A stretch of DNA of 64,000 bases, taken from Chloroflexota bacterium (lineage in GTDB: Bacteria; Chloroflexota; Dehalococcoidia; Lucifugimonadales; GCA-002723415). How positions within the stretch are numbered: position 1 is the first letter of the stretch; the number at the start of each line of letters is the position of its first letter. The stretch lies in the NCBI GenBank assembly GCA_002721445.1, contig PBKN01000014.1, positions 12,988-76,987 on the forward strand. The letters run 5' to 3'. The notes beneath the pieces were generated by a model. It saw nothing but the letters and a program-made list of their open reading frames with translations, ran no database searches and was not told the DNA's origin. Both the position numbers and the translations under genes were made by a program. Shown here piece by piece: positions 5,563 to 64,000 of this stretch.

Positions 5563-6210
5563 TTAATTGTTAATATCTATACCATCTAACACAGGTAGTT
5601 TATCAAATATATTAGAATTTGGAGTTACATATATTAAACAATCTAAAGTTTCCGGGACAAATTCAGATATTTCAAAACTTTCAATATACCAATCCTTATC
5701 ACTACCTCTATCAATAAACCTCCAATATAACGCAGGATAACTAGTATACTGGTATGATAAAGATTCACCTTTATATAACCATTTAACAGATACAAAACCT
5801 TGCAAATGATTTACTGATTTGTAATTCCCTAATAATTTTTCGCCTTGTTCTATTTTTTCTTTTTCTTTTTGACTAGTCGGTTTTACAATTTTAATTCTAT
5901 CAATTGTAATAGATACATCTTTATCCCAATTAACAAAATCAGAATTCCTCTTCCAATTTTCCAATTCATTGTTATTAATATTTACAAAGTTGTCTAAATC
6001 ACATTTCTCCTTCATTCGATAGCTAATATATTTAGTGTAAATTTCTTCCATATTTCCATCTTGCCATGAATTTATAAATCCTTGTGAACGAGATGTAAGG
6101 TTTTTCAAATCATTATCAGAACAACTGATTAAAATAAATGATGAAATGAGTAAAAAAATAAACACCCCAAAAATCTTAGAATAATACTTTAAATTATATT
6201 TATTAAACAT
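5563..6210 (-). CDS. hypothetical lipoprotein
   Basis: N-terminal hydrophobic segment followed by the lipobox-like LISC. ATG at 6210 overlaps the TGA stop of the upstream gene (TGATG). The ORF-track start at 6213 is a TTG one codon earlier. Confidence 0.5.
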   Translation of the reverse strand: MFNKYNLKYYSKIFGVFIFLLISSFILISCSDNDLKNLTSRSQGFINSWQDGNMEEIYTKYISYRMKEKCDLDNFVNINNNELENWKRNSDFVNWDKDVSITIDRIKIVKPTSQKEKEKIEQGEKLLGNYKSVNHLQGFVSVKWLYKGESLSYQYTSYPALYWRFIDRGSDKDWYIESFEISEFVPETLDCLIYVTPNSNIFDKLPVLDGIDINN

Positions 6211-9200
6211 CAATTACTAATTCTTTCTTTTAAAGGATCTATTTCATCTATGATTAACGATTCAAATCTAGAAATTTCAGAATCTATTTTTAATTTAAGA
6301 TGTTCTAAAACATTATACGATTGAGCAGTCGGACGACCTTCTGCACTTGACACTGTACTGTCTAAATTAAATAAAGCATCGACCAGCCTAGAGAGCGGTT
6401 CTCCCATTTGACCAAGACCTTGATTTTTCCAAGAAGGTAACAACTCACCTTCAATCTTATCTAATTTTTCTAAGGCATTAATACAGTTCCCCTGATTTTG
6501 TTTGTCTAAATCTAATTGATCTAATATATTAACTAACTCTAATCTAATTTTTCTGATTTTATTAATATGTTTATAAGTATTAGATATTGTATCCCTAATT
6601 GAAATTAACAATTGAAATTGTTCTTTCATATCACTAATTGGAACATCAATATTATTAGCAGGTTGAATTTCGAATTTTTCAGAATAATCCTTTCCATCTA
6701 TATTAAGAATAACTTGATATTCTCCAGGGATAGCGATAGGACCTTTAGAGGGACTTCCCCCTAATAAATTCATAGAATCTATAGTAGCAAGAGATAAAGA
6801 ATCTTCATAACGCATATCCCAAATAAATCTATTTATCCCTTCATTAAATTTAAATTCATTATGGCTACTATCAAATTCCTTAATTAATCTCCCTTTATGA
6901 TCAAAAAAACTTAATTTCAATTTTGAAAATTCTTTTTGTATATAAAAGAAAAGTTCTACACCTGATAAATGATTATAGCCAGCATCTAAATAAACTCTAT
7001 TAGAGGGGCCATCTTTATAATTATTTTTATAAGCAACATGCACACCAAGTGCTAACTGATAGTTTATACCTTCAGCTATACGAACTTCAGAAGTTACACC
7101 AAGCATAGGAATAATGCGTTTTGCTGGCCTAGGTCTAAATAATAAATTATCTTCAATAAGTTTTGTAGGTAATTGCTGAAGAAAAGTAATATTATCTAAT
7201 ACCCAAAACGATCTACCATGTGTAGCTACAATTATATCCCCATCTTTAACAACTAAATCATGGATAGGAGATACAGGTAATCCTTCACCTAGTATTTGCC
7301 ATGAATCCCCATCATCTAACGAAAAAAATACATTAAATTCAGTTCCAATATATAATAACCCTTGTCTTTTCTCATCTTCTCTAATTACTCTTACAAATTC
7401 TTCTGAAAAAATATTTGAATCTAGTTTTTTCCAGCTCTTTCCATAATTTTCAGTTTTATATAAATACGGCGCATAATCATCTAATTTATATCTTATACCA
7501 GTTAAATATGCAGTGCCTGGATTAAATTCAGAAGGTTCAATCATGCTAATTGTGGTCCATTCAGGTAAATCAGGAGGTGTAATATCATTCCAAGTCTTTC
7601 CTGAATCATCTGATACATATACCAGTCCATCATCAGTCCCTACCCAAAACAAACCCTCTTTTAATGTAGATTCAGCAAAAGCAAAAATAGTACAATATAC
7701 TTCAGCGCCTGAAACGTCTCTACTGATAGGCTCCCCACCAGGTCCTCCTTTAGTAGGATCATTCTTAGTCAAGTCTGGGCTTATTACTTCCCAGCTCATA
7801 CCCTCGTCAATCGAACGAAAGACCCTATTTCCTGCTACATATAAAACTTTGGGATTATGTGGAGAAATAATAATAGGATAGGTCCATTGAAATCTATATT
7901 TCATTTTGTTTGCACCATGTCCATATGAAATTTCAGGCCAAACAGCAATTATACGTGTTTCACCAGATCTATGATCATATTTTAATAAGGTATTACTCCC
8001 TCCAGGGGCACTTCCAATTGCTCCAGAATATATTATATTAGAATCATTTGGATCTACTGCTATATACCCACTTTCTGATGGCCCAACTGAATAACAATCC
8101 TCCCATAATATAGCACCTTTCATTGAATAACTTGGGACACTAATAGCAGTGTTATCTTGTTGAGTACCATAAATTCTATATGGGTTTTGGTTGTCTACAG
8201 CGACATGATAAAACTGTGAAGTTGGCTGATTATGAATTGAGGACCAAGAAATACCTCCATTATAAGATACACAAGCTCCACCATCATTACCTTCAATCAT
8301 TCTATTGGTATCTTCTGGATCTATCCATAAATCATGATTATCACTATGTGGCATCCCTTGCATTTTAAAAGTTTCACCTCCATCTTCAGATTTCCATGCT
8401 TGTATAGGTAATGTCCACACAATATCAGGATTCTGTGGATCAGCAAAAATATGATGGTGGTAAAAAGGTCTTTGTTTTACAATTGAAGAATCATTTACAC
8501 AATCCCAATTATCTCCACCATCTTCAGATCTAAAAAGACCTCCATTTTCAGATTCAATTATAGCCCATACTCTATCTTTTTTTGCTGGAGAAACAGTTAC
8601 ACCAATTCTACCTATAATTTTGGTACCTAAATTAATATTATCTGTTATATTACTCCAAGAAGCCCCACCATCAATAGATTTATATAATCCGCTATCTTCT
8701 CCTCCACTAATTAAGCTCCAAGGAGTACGTAAAGTTTCCCATATTGCAGCATATAAGATATCCGGATCATTCGAATCCATACTGAGATCTATAGCACCAG
8801 CTTTGTCACTTTTAAATAAAATTCTGTCCCAAGTTTTACCTCCGTTTTTCGAACAAAACACACCTCTATCATTATTGCTCCCAAATGCATGCCCTAAAGC
8901 AGCTACATATACTAGGTCGGGGTTGTTAGGATGTATTCTTATTCTAGAAATATGTTTTGTATCTTCTAAACCAAGATGTACCCATGTATTTCCTCCATCC
9001 ATGGACTTGTAAACTCCATCACCATATGAAACATCACTTCTGATACAAGCTTCACCCATACCTGCATAAATAATATCTGGATTAGAGTTAGATATTGCCA
9101 ATGCTCCTACAGATGATGTTTTAAAAAATCCATCTGAAATATTCTCCCAATAATTACCTCCATCTATAGTTTTCCATACCCCTCCAGCACAAGCACCAAA

Positions 9201-20529: not shown

Positions 20530-22361
20530 TTGGATACGTAGGAAATAATTATGCCCCTGAAATATTAACTAATTCCTTGAAAAAGCTTGAATACAGAGGA
20601 TATGACAGTACAGGAGTTGCTTTATTAGACACCAACGCAAAATTAACTATTCAAAAGTCTTCAGGTACTGTTAATAATTTAAAAAAAAATTTAGAGAAAT
20701 ATGATGTTGACAGCAAAATAGGTATAGGGCATACAAGATGGGCAACACATGGAGAACCGAATAATATTAATGCTCACCCTCACACTGACTGTACTAAAAA
20801 AATCAGTATTGTTCATAATGGCATCATAGAAAATCATCAGGAAATTCGTAATTCATTAGAAAAATTAGGACATAAATTCTTGTCTCAAACTGATAGTGAA
20901 TGCATATCACATTTAATAGAAAACTATTTAGACAATAATGATGATATTGAAAAAGCAATAATAAAAACTGCAAATAAAATTAAGGGAGCAAATGTTGTAT
21001 TAGTTATATCTAACAAACATCCAAATAAAATATTTTGTTTTCGGATTGGTAGTGCTGGTGGCTTAATAATAGCTCATGGTAATGATGAAATGCTTGTATC
21101 AAGTGATATTCCTGCAATTATCCCTTACGCATCAAACATAACTTATTTATCAAGTAATGAAATAGCAATTATTTCATCAAAAAAAGTTGAATACAAAAAC
21201 ATTGACGGAATAAGTATATCTAAAAAAACTACTACTTTAGAATTAAATGAAGAATCTATATCTAAAGGTGAATTTAAGCATTTTATGCTAAAAGAAATTC
21301 ATGATCAGCCACAATCAATGACAGACGCAATAGGTTCTAGAGTTTCATTTATTGATAATAAAATTAAATTTGAAAAATTTCCATTTACGGACGATGAAAT
21401 CAAACAATTTTCAAAAATAATATTGATTGGTATGGGAACTAGCTTGCATGCCTGCATGGTAGCAAAAAGCTGGTTCGAATCAATAACAAAAATCCCGACT
21501 GAAGTAGATAACTCATCGGAATTTAGATATAGAGATCTTATATTAAATGAAAATCATCTTATAATATCTATCTCTCAATCTGGAGAAACTGCAGATACAA
21601 TTGCAGCAATGGAAAAATTCAGGCCATTGAATCCGAAACAGATCACATTATCAAATTCTCCTAAAGCACAAACTAGTCAAATTGCTGATTATACAATTGA
21701 TATAAGAGCTGGAATCGAAATTGGAGTAGCTTCGACCAAAACTTTTATGTGCTCATTGACTACTTTATATTTATTATCATTATTTATGGCAGAAAAAAGA
21801 AACTCTTTAACAAAAGCAAAAATGAATGCAAAATTATCAGAATTAGCAAAACTACCTGGAATTATTAGTAATATGCTAGATAATCAAAAACAATATAAAA
21901 TTATTGCAAATAAATATTATAACTATTCTAATTTCTTATATCTTGGACGTGGATTAAATTATCCATTAGCTATGGAAGGTGCATTAAAATTAAAAGAAAT
22001 CAGCTATATACATGCTGAAGGATATCCTGCAGGAGAAATGAAACATGGCCCTATAGCATTAATCGATCAAAATATGCCTGTTGTAATTTTAATACCTAAA
22101 GATAAAATGTTAGATAAAATGTTAATCAACCTTAATGAAGTTAAAGCTAGAAAAGGCACAATAATAGCTATTGCTACTGAAAATGAAAATTATATAAACA
22201 ATTTAGCAAAAGATATTATATTCATACCTAAAACATCTGATGATTTAACTCCAATTATAATGTCTATACCTATGCAATTTATTTCGTATTATATAGCTTT
22301 AAATAAAGAATGTAATATAGACATGCCTAGAAATCTAGCTAAATCAGTTACTGTGGAATGA
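20517..22361 (+). CDS. glmS: glutamine--fructose-6-phosphate aminotransferase
   Basis: 614 aa. Has the N-terminal nucleophile MCGIIGY, two SIS domains and the C-terminal SVTVE. Overlaps plsC by 13 nt. Confidence 0.97.
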   Translation: MCGIIGYVGNNYAPEILTNSLKKLEYRGYDSTGVALLDTNAKLTIQKSSGTVNNLKKNLEKYDVDSKIGIGHTRWATHGEPNNINAHPHTDCTKKISIVHNGIIENHQEIRNSLEKLGHKFLSQTDSECISHLIENYLDNNDDIEKAIIKTANKIKGANVVLVISNKHPNKIFCFRIGSAGGLIIAHGNDEMLVSSDIPAIIPYASNITYLSSNEIAIISSKKVEYKNIDGISISKKTTTLELNEESISKGEFKHFMLKEIHDQPQSMTDAIGSRVSFIDNKIKFEKFPFTDDEIKQFSKIILIGMGTSLHACMVAKSWFESITKIPTEVDNSSEFRYRDLILNENHLIISISQSGETADTIAAMEKFRPLNPKQITLSNSPKAQTSQIADYTIDIRAGIEIGVASTKTFMCSLTTLYLLSLFMAEKRNSLTKAKMNAKLSELAKLPGIISNMLDNQKQYKIIANKYYNYSNFLYLGRGLNYPLAMEGALKLKEISYIHAEGYPAGEMKHGPIALIDQNMPVVILIPKDKMLDKMLINLNEVKARKGTIIAIATENENYINNLAKDIIFIPKTSDDLTPIIMSIPMQFISYYIALNKECNIDMPRNLAKSVTVE

Positions 22362-47479: not shown

Positions 47480-47752
47480 ATGATTAAAGTTAGCAATAAA
47501 GCAAAATCTGAATTATCTAATATAATTAATTCAAGAAAACTTAATCCAGATCAGTGTATTAGGTTATCAGTACCGCCTGCCTGGAAAGGAGAAGGAGATT
47601 TCGGTTTAGTTATAAGTAATTATGGAGTCTCTGATAGCATAATAGAATTCAATAATAAGAAAATATTACTTATAGATGCAGATTTAACAAACCAATTATC
47701 TAAATCAAATTTAGATTTTAAAGATGGAAGATTTACTTTAGATATATATTGA
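47480..47752 (+). CDS. small hypothetical protein, HesB/IscA-like layout without cysteine ligands
   Basis: 90 aa. The pattern I-x-V-S-x-x-A ... IRLSV ... F-x-L ... ILLIDADL ... LDF resembles the IscA/HesB fold order. The only Cys (DQCIRL) is not at the ligand positions and the C-terminal C-G-C motif is absent. Confidence 0.3.
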   Translation: MIKVSNKAKSELSNIINSRKLNPDQCIRLSVPPAWKGEGDFGLVISNYGVSDSIIEFNNKKILLIDADLTNQLSKSNLDFKDGRFTLDIY

Positions 47753-47791
47753 AACAAAAACACCTGCAAATATTTTAACAGGGGGAATTAT

Positions 47792-48973
47792 TTGAAGGAT
47801 ATAATAATAATTGGAGCAGGGCCAGCAGGTAACATTGTTGCAGAAAAAACGGCAGAAGCCGGATTAGATGTTCTCGTGTTAGATTGGAGACAAATTATTG
47901 GAGACAAATTATGCACAGGGATTATTGGGAAAGAATGTTTAGACAAATTCCCACCCAGAGAAGAAGATATATTCCACGAGGTTAAATCAGCTACATTAAT
48001 ATCTCCAAATAACAAAACATATAGAATTACACGAAGCAATACTCAAGCAGCTATATTAAATAGAGTTTCATATATACAATCTTTTGCAAATAAAGCTAAA
48101 AAATATGGTGCTAAATATGATTTAGAACATAGAGTTACAGAAATTAAGCAAAATACTGATCATATTAGCATTAAAGCTAAATATAAAGAGGTTTTAAAAA
48201 CTTATAAGTGTAAACTCCTTATCATTTCAAGTGGTTTTAATACACCTTTATTAAGAATGGTAGGTATAGAAACTCATAATAATAAATCTTTAATGGGTTC
48301 ACAAATTGAAGTAGAAGTAGAAAAACCACTTGAAACTCAAGTTTATTTTGGAAAAGAAATTTCTCCTGGATCTTTTGGTTGGTTAGTTCCTTTATCTAAA
48401 TCAAGAGCACTATTAGGAGTAATATCCAAAGAAAAAACCCAAGAAAATATAAAGTATTTTTTGAATAAATTAATTAATGAAGGAAAAATTCTAGATCTTA
48501 ATTACAATATTAAAAGCTGGGGAATACCAATTAGCCCAATAAATAAAACATATAAAAATCGAATTTTAATTACTGGTGATGCAGCCGGCTTAACAAAACC
48601 TACAACTGGTGGAGGAATATATTATTCATTATTATCTGGTCAATTAGCTGCAAAAACTTCGATTGAAGCTATAAAAAGTAACAACCTTTCGGAAAATAAA
48701 CTAAAAGAATACCAGTCAGCATGGAAAAACATTTTTGGTAAAGAAATTAGTATTAGCCATTATTCTAGATTGTTTTTTGAAACTTTAAATGATGAACAAA
48801 TAGAAAAAATCATTTCACTTGGATTTGAATTCCAAAAAGAACTGATCAACGAATCAGATTTTTCTTTTGATTGGCACAGTAAAGTTATTTTGAAAGCATT
48901 TAAAATTAAAAAAATGCGCGAATCATTAATGAAACTTGTTCCCATCATTCCATCAATATTATTAAAAAAATAA
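47792..48973 (+). CDS. geranylgeranyl-reductase-family FAD-dependent oxidoreductase
   Basis: 393 aa with a TTG start and GGGGGA upstream. Has IIIIGAGPAGN, DKLCTGII and TGDAAGLTKPTTGGGIYYS. Confidence 0.78.
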   Translation: MKDIIIIGAGPAGNIVAEKTAEAGLDVLVLDWRQIIGDKLCTGIIGKECLDKFPPREEDIFHEVKSATLISPNNKTYRITRSNTQAAILNRVSYIQSFANKAKKYGAKYDLEHRVTEIKQNTDHISIKAKYKEVLKTYKCKLLIISSGFNTPLLRMVGIETHNNKSLMGSQIEVEVEKPLETQVYFGKEISPGSFGWLVPLSKSRALLGVISKEKTQENIKYFLNKLINEGKILDLNYNIKSWGIPISPINKTYKNRILITGDAAGLTKPTTGGGIYYSLLSGQLAAKTSIEAIKSNNLSENKLKEYQSAWKNIFGKEISISHYSRLFFETLNDEQIEKIISLGFEFQKELINESDFSFDWHSKVILKAFKIKKMRESLMKLVPIIPSILLKK

Positions 48974-61096: not shown

Positions 61097-62089
61097 CTAT
61101 GCTGGCAACACAACTGAGCTTGGGCTTAAACCATCTAAAACCATTCTAACATTTGACAAAGCAAATCTCCTACTCTTTATTAAAGCTTCTTCAGAAAAAC
61201 CAGCCAAATGTGGAGTAATTATTACATTATCCATTGATAACAATTCATTGTTTGCTAATATAGGTTCATCTTCAAGTACATCTAGTCCAGCCCCGAATAT
61301 TAAACCTTCATTTAAAGCTCTAATAAGGTCTGACTGATTTACGACTTCACCACGAGAAGTATTTATTAAAACTGATGATTTTTTCATTTTTAAAATGTTA
61401 TCATATCTAATTAAGTTTTTAGAAATACGGTCAAGAGGAATGTGTAGCGTAACAATATCAGAATTTTCTAGTAATTCTAATATTGAACATTGAGTTACAT
61501 TTAATTCATTTTCCTCAATATGCTTTAAATCATTATATATAATATTACAATCCCAACCAGATAACCTTTTAGCAACATTTCTTCCAATCCTGCCAAATCC
61601 TATTATACCCACAGTCTTCCCTGCCAATTCAAATGTACTAGCATCGGTTTTAGAATTTGGTGAACCATAATTACTTCTTAAATTCTTTTGCCATAACAAA
61701 TTTTTTACAGAACTAAACTGAATGTCTATTTTTCTATAAACTGAAACCATTAAAGAAATAGCATGTTCTGCAACTGCTACAGAATTTCCTCCTCCATTAT
61801 TAGCAACTTTAATACCCAAGTCTTGTAAAGATACTTTATCAATCCAATCAGTTCCTGCGCTTATAGTTTGAACTAATCTTAAATCCTTACATTGTTTTGC
61901 AAGTTCTATTGGAAAAACTGAAGGTATTACAATTACTCCAACTATACCATTCATTGATTCAGACTGAACATCTAATGGTTGATTGGAATCTATCCATCTA
62001 ATACCTATATTTTCATTTATTGAATCTTTTAAAAATTCAATTTGGGAAGAATCTGGAGAATAAACTCCTATCAAATCTGAATTGTTCAC
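61097..62089 (-). CDS. D-isomer-specific 2-hydroxyacid dehydrogenase family protein
   Basis: 330 aa with a GTG start and GGAG upstream. Has the NAD site GIIGFGRIGRNVAKR, NTSRG and the catalytic-region ITPHLAG. Confidence 0.85.
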   Translation of the reverse strand: MNNSDLIGVYSPDSSQIEFLKDSINENIGIRWIDSNQPLDVQSESMNGIVGVIVIPSVFPIELAKQCKDLRLVQTISAGTDWIDKVSLQDLGIKVANNGGGNSVAVAEHAISLMVSVYRKIDIQFSSVKNLLWQKNLRSNYGSPNSKTDASTFELAGKTVGIIGFGRIGRNVAKRLSGWDCNIIYNDLKHIEENELNVTQCSILELLENSDIVTLHIPLDRISKNLIRYDNILKMKKSSVLINTSRGEVVNQSDLIRALNEGLIFGAGLDVLEDEPILANNELLSMDNVIITPHLAGFSEEALIKSRRFALSNVRMVLDGLSPSSVVLPA

Positions 62090-62248
62090 AATATAACTCC
62101 TTATAAATTAACATATTATTTATCTTAAAATTTAAATAATAACTATTATAATACTAACAAAGACAATTAATATATTTATAGTTGATAATAGTGTTATGAT
62201 GTTATTTATTTAATTAGAATATGCTAAATTATATAAATGGAGACATAA

Positions 62249-62467
62249 GTGCATACAAAACCAATTCTTTTCACCCATCCAGATTGTACTTATTCTGATA
62301 TTTTTAGATCCGAACTTAATGAGGACAATATAGATTTTGATGAAATTGACTTGTCTAAGCATCCAGAAAAATGGAATGATTTATTAAAATTAACAGATGG
62401 AGAAAAAATAACCCCTGTCTTGCTAGAAGATGGTAAGGTTACAATTGGATATGAAGGTGTTGGCTGA
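62249..62467 (+). CDS. glutaredoxin/NrdH-like small thioredoxin-fold protein with a C-x-x-S motif
   Basis: 72 aa with a GTG start and GGAG upstream. Has ILFTHPDCTYSD (Cys-Thr-Tyr-Ser) at the end of the first strand, then TPVL ... G-x-x-x-G-Y as in the glutaredoxin cis-Pro/GG region. Confidence 0.55.
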   Translation: MHTKPILFTHPDCTYSDIFRSELNEDNIDFDEIDLSKHPEKWNDLLKLTDGEKITPVLLEDGKVTIGYEGVG

Positions 62468-62543
62468 GTAATTTGAATTCTAGGCAGTTTGCTTAGACCT
62501 CTATACATAATATTTGTAAAAAAATAATAAAGTAGTAATAAAA

Positions 62544-63233
62544 TTGAATAATTCTAAAAACCAAATTAAAAATCCAAAATTCTCATTACTCTCTACAGAG
62601 GGCAAGTATATAGACATATCCGATTACTATGGAAAAAAAATTATCTTATTTATTTGGGCTTCATGGTGAGGATGCAGAGAGCAATTGCCTGTATGGCAAG
62701 AATTTTATGATGAATACAAGCAATATGTAGAAATTTTATCTATAGCTATAGATTTTCAAGGTAAATCAAAAGTAATGCCCTATATTGAGAAATTCAATTT
62801 AAAATTCCCAACTTTAATTGATCAAAAAAACCTTACAGGCCAATTATATAATTTTAAAGCGGTCCCAAATGGAATAATGATTGATGAAGAAGGAAATATA
62901 GCCTTAAAAAAAATAGGCGGATTTGATATACGCAACAAAAAAATTAATAATCAGTTAGTTAACTGGATTACAAAATCATTCCCTGTAGAACCGATCCAAA
63001 ATAAAACTTTAGACATAAAAAAAGAAGCTGTAAATTTATTTGAAAAAGGGATGACATATTTTGAATCTAATAACATCAAACTTGCTATAAAATATTGGAA
63101 AAAGAGTGTTGAAATTGATCCGGATAATTATATAATTAGAAAGCAAGTTTGGGCAATTGAAAACCCTGAAAAATTCTACTCTGGAAAAATAGATTATGAT
63201 TGGCAAAACAATAACATAAAACAAAATAAATAA
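62544..63233 (+). CDS. TlpA/redoxin-like thioredoxin-fold protein with C-terminal TPR-like region, containing an in-frame TGA (candidate selenocysteine) at 62667-62669
   Basis: A single frame runs from TTG 62544 to TAA 63233 and is interrupted only by TGA 62667-62669. The translation is ...FSLLSTEGKYIDISDYYGKKIILFIWASW-[TGA]-GCREQLPVWQEFYDEY..., which is the FWASWC-x-x-CR-x-x-x-P redoxin active-site context. The ORF track reports only the downstream 182 aa from an internal TTG at 62685. Confidence 0.55.
62685..62699 (+). other. small hairpin downstream of the in-frame UGA (weak SECIS candidate)
   Basis: TTGCC (62685-62689), loop TGTAT, then GGCAA (62695-62699). It begins 15 nt after the UGA. 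The stem is only 5 bp, so this is weak on its own. Confidence 0.2.
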
Positions 63234-63246
63234 TTAAGGCAATAAA

Positions 63247-64000
63247 ATGTTTTTACTTAAACTACCAATACTACTTTTTAAAACTATATCAATATCACTT
63301 GTATCAATTATAATCACAGTTTTTTTATTATTAACATTTATATTACTTCAACTAAATTCAACAGTCTTAAATCCAGACTATATTGGAGACACATTTGAAG
63401 AAAACCAAATACCTAATTTCCTCTTAGTAGAACTACCAACATCAATTATTAATGAAGCAAAAGATATCCCTGATGATTCTAAATATAGCCGTAACCAAAA
63501 AAATATAGTAAATGATGCTGGTCTGGAAACTGAAGATTATATAAAAGTTTTAAACGCTCTGATATCCCCCGAATTATTGCAAGAAACTATAAGTGATAAC
63601 TCTTCACAGTTGGTAGATTATTTAACAGGTGGCTCGGATGAGTTTGAATTGAAGGTTAGTTTAAAAGATCGAATACCTATTTTAACAGATGAAATCATAG
63701 TTTTACTAAATAAATCAGAATATTACAATCTATTATTTGAAAGAGGTGTAGATCCATATATAGATTCAACACTAGAAAAACAAAATTTACCTTTAGGCCT
63801 TGAACTAACTTCTGAAGAACTATCTGAATTTTTACAAAAAGTAATACCTGAACAGTGGATTAATGATCAAATTGATGATACTTTATCTTCAATTACACCA
63901 TATGCTACAAAAGATTCAGAAGCTTTTGAAATTAAACTTATACTAAGTCCTATAATAAAAAATTCACTCACTGAAACAAAAATATTATTAGCAAAAAAAG
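63247..64000 (+). CDS. hypothetical membrane-anchored protein, 3' end outside the window
   Basis: ATG 63247 opens a frame that stays open to the window end, which is why it is absent from the ORF track. It has an N-terminal hydrophobic helix (ISLVSIIITVFLLLTFILL) followed by a polar, acidic region. No family recognised. Confidence 0.4.
   Translation, partial: MFLLKLPILLFKTISISLVSIIITVFLLLTFILLQLNSTVLNPDYIGDTFEENQIPNFLLVELPTSIINEAKDIPDDSKYSRNQKNIVNDAGLETEDYIKVLNALISPELLQETISDNSSQLVDYLTGGSDEFELKVSLKDRIPILTDEIIVLLNKSEYYNLLFERGVDPYIDSTLEKQNLPLGLELTSEELSEFLQKVIPEQWINDQIDDTLSSITPYATKDSEAFEIKLILSPIIKNSLTETKILLAKK

Follow-up and report, generated by a model that had tools for sequence, protein, structure and literature searches.

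The question raised by this locus is how a single in-frame TGA is read within a redoxin gene near the 3' end of a 64,000-nucleotide stretch of Chloroflexota contig PBKN01000014.1 (class Dehalococcoidia), the whole of which is referred to here as the window. An earlier interpretation made from the letters alone (hereafter the sequence-only reading) had proposed that the gene encodes a candidate selenoprotein. Comparison with related loci, Cys-containing relatives and solved structures makes it very probable that the TGA at 62667-62669 is the selenocysteine (Sec) codon of one 229-residue protein of the ResA/TlpA fold. A second gene directly upstream was also predicted to carry a Sec codon, and the presence of two selenoproteins side by side in the window is well supported by these sequence comparisons.

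A redoxin gene with one internal TGA

The redoxin gene occupies 690 nt on the forward strand (62544-63233), running from a TTG start codon at 62544 to a TAA stop codon at 63231-63233, and comprises 229 codons if the predicted Sec at residue 42 is counted. Its lone internal stop is the TGA at 62667-62669, with 41 codons on the 5' side and 187 codons on the 3' side, and in translation this codon lies within the motif W-A-S-W-U-G-C at residues 38-44. A listing of open reading frames (ORFs) cuts the gene into a 41-aa piece and a 182-aa piece that begins at TTG 62685. The frame, its single TGA and the peptide strings quoted in the sequence-only reading were all recovered at matching coordinates. 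The complete 690-nt gene, including the TGA, was present with 0 mismatches across six independent assemblies (ENA, NCBI, Logan and Tara), and the 182-aa piece was found on 19 contigs. The GC content of the window is 30.6%.

With U read as C, residues 10-136 (62571-62951, forward strand) matched the Pfam models AhpC-TSA (PF00578, 2.7e-15) and Redoxin (6.5e-15), and both matches extend across the TGA, in agreement with the TlpA/ResA/AhpC-TSA context that had been recognised around it. The assignment of this region as a Redoxin (thioredoxin-fold) domain draws in addition on PDB matches, Foldseek and invariant alignment columns. In alignments to the structures of ResA, StoA, Etrx and TlpA the TGA stands opposite the nucleophilic first Cys of WCGPC, the position to which it had been assigned from the sequence, and a one-residue gap falls where the Pro of that motif would be. 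The codon for Cys44 (TGC, 62673-62675) is TGY in 81/81 aligned sequences, and this residue is presumed to be the resolving Cys of a U-x-C centre. Also invariant across the family are the cis-Pro loop P108-N109-G110, the segment F127-D128-I129-R130 and a C-terminal block consisting of P193, N195, K200, Q201, W203, P208, F211, W220 and Q221.

A structure was predicted with AlphaFold2 (AF2) for P0111, a relative that is 98% identical to the window redoxin and has Trp at the Sec site, and the model was for this reason read at the level of the fold. It is of high confidence (predicted local distance difference test, pLDDT, 89.9; predicted template modelling score, pTM, 0.87) and consists of a thioredoxin-fold domain followed by five helices. 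Foldseek aligned its first ~138 residues to ResA, 3kcm, 4nmu, DsbE and TlpA, with target-normalised TM-scores of 0.80-0.87 and a root mean square deviation of ~2 A, while no PDB chain covered the helical C-terminal domain. That domain (63036-63206, forward strand) contains TPR-like helices at residues 165-195 and the motif DPDNYIIRKQxWAxENPEKFY...WQ at residues 192-221, as indicated by Pfam, the invariant residues and the AF2 helices; the TPR_1 match to residues 165-195, at 26.0 bits, falls slightly below the cutoff of 27.8 bits. By inspection, the hydrophilic N-terminus (MNNSKNQIKNPKFSLL) contains no signal peptide. The sequence-only reading had noted both the TPR-like C-terminal segment and the lack of a signal peptide, and both descriptions stood.

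Conservation of the TGA was examined in a homologue scan using one genome per species, in which 156 species genomes encoded a redoxin relative and 80 loci were kept, together with a protein search that returned 79 redoxin relatives. A TGA was present in 80/80 of the kept loci, in each case within the motif W-[AGS]-S-W-TGA-x-C-R-x-Q-L-P-x-W-Q, and both of its flanks are conserved (G-K-K-x-I-L-F-x-W-A-S-W upstream and C-R-x-Q-L-P-x-W-Q downstream). The 40-46 codons 5' of the TGA are kept at the protein level in 80/80 species without other stops or frameshifts, across loci whose GC content ranges from 30 to 66%. The loci derive mostly from metagenome-assembled genomes (MAGs) of Dehalococcoidia/SAR202, with others, by bin label, from Caldilineaceae, Anaerolineae, Promineifilaceae, Chloroflexia, Latescibacterota, Poribacteria and Marinimicrobia. 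A typical member of the family has 228-250 aa, of which 43-46 residues precede the Sec, and no signal peptide. The middle residue of the U-x-C motif is A in 42 of the 80 loci, G in 22 and one of V, S, K, R, T, M or D in the remaining 16.

Full-length relatives with Cys at the TGA position were also found, carrying CGC (P0034, P0042, P0044 and P0141), CTC (P0181 and P0233), CIC (P0195), CYC (P0236) or CHC (P0252). These retain the one-residue spacing of the U-x-C forms, indicating that C/U-x-C is native to the family rather than the result of a local deletion. The pairing of Sec and Cys at the same position is the classical signature of a selenoprotein. Sec forms were far more numerous than Cys forms across the loci and searches examined, and loss of one redox residue or of the pair was seen in other relatives (SSC, DSC, CGS, SGS, SES or SPC). 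The candidate selenoprotein proposed by the sequence-only reading is thus borne out by the universal TGA in the kept loci, the Cys relatives, the identical assemblies and the SECIS-like hairpin described below. Of the outcomes which that reading had named as contrary, such as homologues with scattered frameshifts and stops or a redox Cys pair lying elsewhere in the alignment, none was found among those tested.

Two features of the surrounding loci were recorded. A tRNA-Asp(GTC) gene lies 50-200 nt past the redoxin stop codon in ~20/60 scanned loci (L040-L062 and others), which belong to one Dehalococcoidia subgroup. In 14/80 loci, a count that comes from noisy ORF clustering, a large ORF with repeated M-T-C-A-S-C metal-binding motifs is located ~3.5 kb upstream of the redoxin TGA (e.g. 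L049 1263-3852), and this ORF looks like a copper/heavy-metal P-type ATPase. Since TlpA proteins function in copper-centre assembly, such a neighbour could hint at a metal-related role for the redoxin. When neighbourhoods were clustered from naive ORF calls, spurious antisense frames in the GC-rich loci dominated the result, and the glutaredoxin-like gene described below is the only neighbour that was robust.

Downstream hairpins and the neighbouring selenoprotein gene

The sequence-only reading had noted a 5-bp hairpin beginning 15 nt after the UGA and had considered it weak. Its presence and position were upheld, whereas its description as weak was not, as the stem corresponds to a conserved core of the kind found in a selenocysteine insertion sequence (SECIS). 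The hairpin (62685-62699, forward strand) lies within the codons for L-P-V-W-Q and has the stem UUGCC/GGCAA and the loop UGUAU, which contains GU and whose G is 24 nt after the U of the UGA. From an alignment of 81 sequences (79 distinct), RNAalifold recovered the same 5-bp stem, YUGCC/GGCAR, formed between the Leu-Pro and Trp-Gln codons and enclosing a loop of N-G-U-N-U. The stem pairs are formed in 79/79 distinct sequences, barring one broken G-C cell. A possible sixth pair is G-C in 39 sequences and has A opposite G in 34.

Four of the five pairs are invariant through the conserved peptide and are uninformative for this reason. The remaining pair, 25-39, is made between Leu codon position 1 and Gln codon position 3, and among the 79 distinct sequences is C-G in 53, U-A in 22, U-G in 4 and unpaired in 0; the combination C-A was observed 0 times against ~15 expected (Fisher p=8e-16). 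Two control pairs showed weaker association, with the third bases of two Gln codons 15 nt apart being uncorrelated (p=0.32) and the third base of the Cys codon compared with that of the Gln codon giving p=0.002, so the covariation at pair 25-39 exceeds what GC content would produce. Loss of the hairpin outside the Sec forms was judged from one Cys form and one Ser form. In the Cys form (L087) the Pro is replaced (Q-L-A-A-W-Q) and the stem is destroyed (CAGCTAGCCGCCTGGCAG), and in the Ser form (L089) the same is true with a different replacement (Q-L-V-D-W-Q; CAGCTTGTTGATTGGCAG).

Both strands of the window were scanned for TGA triplets followed by a hairpin of at least 5 bp with at least 3 G-C pairs and GU in the loop at +18 to +28. 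Of the 2,500 TGA triplets, just 5 precede such a hairpin, and 2 of these 5 follow at least 40 open codons, namely the redoxin TGA and the TGA that ends a glutaredoxin-like ORF immediately upstream.

This upstream ORF (62249-62467) is glutaredoxin-like by Pfam PF00462. Reading its TGA at 62465-62467 as Sec extends it to a 75-codon gene (62249-62476, forward strand) with C-T-Y-S near its N-terminus and the end G-V-G-U-V-I-stop, in which the Sec is the third residue from the C-terminus and the true stop is a second TGA at 62474-62476. With U read as C, the 75-aa protein scored 107.4 bits against NF041211, whose cutoff is 100. On this evidence the gene, which the sequence-only reading had overlooked, is predicted to be a selenoprotein of UXX-star family 2. 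A homologue is found directly upstream of the redoxin, and on the same strand, in 29/80 loci. In 27 of these 29, as in the window, the tail has the arrangement ...G-[VI]-G-TGA-x-x-stop, that is, a TGA, two sense codons and a real stop.

The loci with this tail share a hairpin of 6-8 bp with a GUN triloop, placed a few bases past the true stop. In the window it occupies 62480-62496 (forward strand), within the 67-nt intergenic spacer, with the stem CUAGGCA/UGCUUAG and a GUU loop. Across 28 sequences, compensatory changes were seen at 7/7 pairs and 96.9% of cells were paired; the covariation score was reached by 0/500 shuffles, and controls in which the pairing was slid collapsed. When the 27 other genomes alone were used to build a covariance model, its sole significant match in the 64 kb was 62462-62505 in the window (30.5 bits, E=5.8e-5). 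As this region is non-coding, there is no codon confound. The two Sec codons predicted here are 200 nt apart and each is accompanied by its own predicted SECIS, and the upstream gene thereby supports, as an independent line of evidence, the decoding of UGA as Sec in this organism.

Two of the 29 loci (L073 and L074) have TGT/TGC, encoding Cys, in place of the tail TGA (GIG-C-SFYE/D), ~400 nt before the redoxin TGA, and both are without the hairpin. Their glutaredoxin-like proteins have an N-terminal C-T-I-C instead of C-x-x-S, and their redoxin genes keep the TGA. These two cases suggest that the tail Sec and the second active-site Cys may substitute for one another. Separately, a 75-aa call ending GVG-R-VI, with Arg at the Sec site (presumably CGA), was found on 2 contigs (P0110/P0107, in the cluster of P0002), and the same cluster holds a 92-aa read-through form with Trp that was translated with genetic code table 4. 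Either natural variation or an error of assembly could account for the Arg form.

A competing explanation for the hairpin at 62685-62699 is that it is an intrinsic terminator or attenuator, or else a by-product of the L-P-x-W-Q peptide, rather than a SECIS. A consensus scan of 62050-63400 gave no other terminator-like site, with GAATTTTATG directly after the hairpin, but this T-rich tail is missing from the GC-rich homologues. Conserved codons fix four of the five pairs, but the positions that are free to vary always pair, the neighbouring synonymous pair is uncorrelated, and the stem is destroyed in the one Cys form and the one Ser form. Further, the hairpin resembles the non-coding SECIS next door in its distance from the UGA and in its GU loop. 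This explanation is considered very unlikely, and the hairpin is probably the SECIS of the redoxin gene.

Reading of UGA in the window

A second alternative is that UGA is decoded as a standard amino acid, whether Trp (table 4), Gly (table 25) or, by near-cognate read-through, Trp or Cys. Some annotation pipelines did use table 4 and placed W at the site, and the machinery for Sec was not encountered in the window or in the flanks of related loci. However, TGA ends 8/45 of the window ORFs of at least 200 aa, which indicates that the code is not reassigned, and the true TGA stops to which the sequence-only reading had pointed (528-530, 22359-22361 and, on the minus strand, 6210-6212) are all real. 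Genome-wide reassignment of TGA was ruled out by this stop-codon usage. In addition, the codon occupies the position of the catalytic nucleophile, where relatives have Cys and not Trp or Gly; a SECIS-type hairpin accompanies the TGA in the Sec forms only, and does so in two different genes; and use of Sec has been documented in the lineage. In BSepDB, a database whose species were chosen for having at least two of SelA, SelB and SelD, the ten bacteria richest in selenoprotein genes include two marine Dehalococcoidia MAGs (49 and 46 genes; PMC13326102). Decoding as a standard amino acid is accordingly given little credence.

The window was also surveyed for other recoding. One other same-frame TGA junction with sizeable flanking ORFs is present (47480-48973). 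Here TGA 47750-47752 terminates an ORF of 90 aa, and 40 nt further on begins an ORF of 393 aa that contains the dinucleotide-binding motif GAGPA. No sign of recoding was seen at 47750, and the two ORFs were judged to be adjacent genes. The same-frame TGA scan and the hairpin scan revealed no selenoprotein genes in the window beyond the two described above.

The alternative that is hardest to sustain, and to which almost no weight is given, is that the TGA is a true stop, leaving either a pseudogene or a 41-codon leader followed by an independent 182-residue protein from TTG 62685: ORF callers and public records give only a 182-193-aa piece and TGA is a normal stop in this genome, but a product truncated in this way would be missing the initial strands, and with them the active site, of a fold that the Pfam matches, PDB matches and AF2 model all place across the TGA (as the sequence-only reading had argued), the upstream codons are protein-conserved in every species of the scan, the Cys relatives read as single proteins, and a pseudogene would not retain exactly one TGA at one position across so wide a range of GC content.

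Several observations weigh against the assignment of the TGA as a Sec codon or against what has been built upon it. Support for Sec in the redoxin consists of comparative sequence evidence only. ARAGORN found no tRNA-Sec in the window or in 60 related loci, and tblastn with E. coli SelA, SelB and SelD (from NC_000913.3) gave no match at 1e-3 in the window and the flanks of related loci (~1 Mb), so that the Sec machinery is supported at the level of the lineage, from the literature; the literature on SAR202 and selenocysteine yielded only single passing mentions of selenocysteine. The redoxin hairpin has just 5 bp in an AT-rich genome, four of these pairs never vary, and its single covarying pair lies in coding sequence and was scored among phylogenetically related sequences. 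An Rfam search, at both gathering-threshold and E-value settings, returned no SECIS family in the window, the output being three tRNAs and sub-threshold noise. The covariance model of the UXX-star SECIS does not detect the redoxin hairpin, so the core for SelB binding that the two seem to have in common, GCC-(N)GU(N)(U)-GGC, is a resemblance drawn by eye. The window redoxin also scores below the cutoff of its best-matching curated family, as set out below, and the cytoplasmic location, the mechanism of redox action and the pairing with the glutaredoxin-like protein, whose gene adjoins the redoxin in just 29/80 loci, are inferred. Set beside the evidence in its favour, these points leave a Sec codon as the reading that is held with high confidence.

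The Sec reading has consequences for public annotation. Relatives of the redoxin are mostly called as 160-195-aa proteins starting just past the TGA ('MPVWQ...' or 'MCREQLPVWQ...'), and the 182-193-aa redoxin piece is variously named 'hypothetical protein', 'redoxin domain-containing protein' or 'TlpA family protein disulfide reductase', while the glutaredoxin-like protein ends 3 residues early in public records. At the Sec site some public records have Trp and one has Arg. Seven database redoxins with WASW-W-GC (P0001, P0006, P0007, P0011, P0111, P0113 and P0153) resemble full-length non-Sec homologues but are not, as their Trp arises from translation of short contigs with genetic code 4.

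Proposed relay, family placement and known systems

In the proposed mechanism, the hairpin at 62685-62699 would be bound by SelB-GTP-Sec-tRNA(Sec) and would direct insertion of Sec at the UGA. The redoxin is predicted to be cytoplasmic because its N-terminus is short, hydrophilic and without a signal peptide. Sec42 would act as the nucleophile that attacks the substrate, and resolution of the intermediate by Cys44 would close a tight ring containing a strained intramolecular selenenylsulfide. The one-residue spacing may, as the analogy of C-x-C chemistry suggests, result in a more oxidising, isomerase-like couple than C-G-P-C, and the TPR and C-terminal domain probably recruits a substrate or client. 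The glutaredoxin-like and redoxin genes may form one transcription unit, with the glutaredoxin-like protein, which has one active-site Cys and a Sec tail, as the redox partner of the redoxin. In such a Sec-to-Sec relay, the mobile Sec tail of the small protein would re-reduce, or exchange with, the U-x-C centre of the redoxin.

A broader proposal can be put forward only tentatively, as something possible rather than probable. The short, signal-less W-A-x-x-U-x-C redoxin-TPR clade, distinct from the WAxxUGC long family and almost always in the Sec form, may pair with a UXX-star family 2 protein as a dedicated cytoplasmic two-selenoprotein relay in which the Sec tail acts on the U-x-C selenenylsulfide. 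Such a relay would be characteristic of SAR202 and other marine Dehalococcoidia and perhaps undescribed as a module, both of its genes being systematically mis-annotated as truncated.

No new category of selenoprotein is involved, as the U-G-C motif and both families are already catalogued, U-G-C selenoproteins having been known since 2008. What the analysis adds is the tandem pair in the window and in 29/80 loci, the definition of a coding-embedded SECIS, and the delineation of a short clade that lies below the curated model, has U-x-C that is not strictly U-G-C and is mis-annotated publicly. The locus appears to represent a genuine recoding event that was recognisable from raw sequence, and a well-supported case of adjacent selenoproteins in bacteria of the SAR202 type, which are abundant in the dark ocean. 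The natural U-x-C/C-x-C series on the ResA fold, whose middle residue is A, G, V, S, T, K, R, M or D, could serve for work on the influence of spacing and selenium on redox potential.

The one-residue spacing of the U-G-C motif, which had struck the sequence-only reading as odd even for a selenoprotein, is instead a published hallmark of a known family. The Global Ocean Sampling (GOS) data include a 'Prx-like (UGC-containing)' family with 46 Sec sequences and 855 Cys homologues (PMC2398784), and a UGC-motif family on the AhpC-TSA (pfam00578)/TlpA-like (cd02966) domain is tabulated in Table 2 of that paper and in Table 1 of a review (PMC13188914). The window redoxin resembles these UGC Prx-like/TlpA selenoproteins in having W-A-x-x-U-G-C on an AhpC-TSA/TlpA thioredoxin fold, Cys homologues and a TPR-containing C-terminal part, and it belongs to their kind, whose published representative is MDE0950781.1, as placed by motif and domain definitions.

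Within NCBIfam, its best match is NF041054, 'ResA-like WAxxUGC motif-containing protein' (WAxxUGC_long), a profile of 354 positions against which it scores 132.2 bits, with window residues 8-120 aligned to profile positions 82-195. As this is below the 300-bit cutoff, the protein is outside the curated equivalog. The same model is the best NCBIfam match for 13 tested relatives, at 102-166 bits. Among these, seven short or 301-aa proteins score 126-159 bits, and the long forms of 396-422 aa, extended at the N-terminus by a signal peptide and a further domain, align to profile positions 25-326 yet still score within 102-166 bits. Unlike the 354-position profile, the 229-aa window protein has no counterpart of the N-terminal ~80 positions, which correspond to the signal peptide and extra domain of the long relatives, whereas at the C-terminal side the longer relatives reach profile positions ~326-336. 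The middle residue also differs, in that the short clade does not have a fixed Gly and usually has A. These comparisons place the window redoxin in what appears to be a short, N-terminally unextended sister clade beyond the curated equivalog.

In the long relatives, of 370-422 aa (L086 from a Poribacteria bin, P0141, P0165, P0205 and P0229), the same redoxin-TPR core is preceded by a signal peptide and an additional domain of ~130-190 residues, and some of them are without both redox residues (SES or DQS). They cover the greater part of the NF041054 profile but fall short of its cutoff.

The G-x-G-U ending of the upstream gene product, in which two residues follow the Sec, is that of NF041211 (UXX-star family 2), and no feature distinguishes it from that family. 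For Sec carried on a C-terminal tail there is a precedent in thioredoxin reductase, in which it lies on a flexible C-terminal G-C-U-G tail; the family and motif are others, and the analogy is one of mechanism only. A precedent for a Sec glutaredoxin that serves a Sec enzyme comes from clostridia, in which selenoprotein MsrA is reduced by a glutaredoxin that is itself a selenoprotein (Kim et al. 2011, as cited in PMC13188914), again as an analogy of mechanism only, since the families and motifs differ. The selenoprotein-operon section of the same review does not mention a pairing of UXX-star with WAxxUxC proteins. This negative covers that section of the review; the UXX-star families themselves are defined in Haft & Tolstoy (2025, mSystems).

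Membership of the peroxiredoxins (AhpC/TSA, BCP/PrxQ) was considered and rejected. Their P-x-x-x-T/S-x-x-C(U) motif is missing, the window having F-I-W-A-S-W-U with Ser at -2 rather than -3 and no Pro at -7, and the PrxQ models gave only 18.6 and 29.7 bits.

With C-x-C motifs, including the Cys-Gly-Cys peptide that mimics protein disulphide isomerase, the window redoxin shares the single residue between the redox chalcogens, its motif being equivalent to WCGPC minus the Pro. The Cys-Gly-Cys peptide has an E0' of -0.167 V, compared with -0.270 V for thioredoxin (bioRxiv 10.64898/2026.01.27.701630). Those systems differ in being Cys-only peptides or engineered proteins, and their potential may be carried over to a Se-S couple by inference only.

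The closest structural comparison is with ResA, TlpA, StoA and Etrx, with which the window redoxin shares the fold, the F-W-A-S-W lead-in, the R-x-x-x-P that follows the motif and the cis-Pro loop. These proteins are membrane-anchored or secreted reductases with C-x-x-C centres (WCGPC or WCEPC). In contrast, the window redoxin has a predicted U-x-C centre that is one residue shorter, no signal peptide or anchor, and a helical domain added at its C-terminus.

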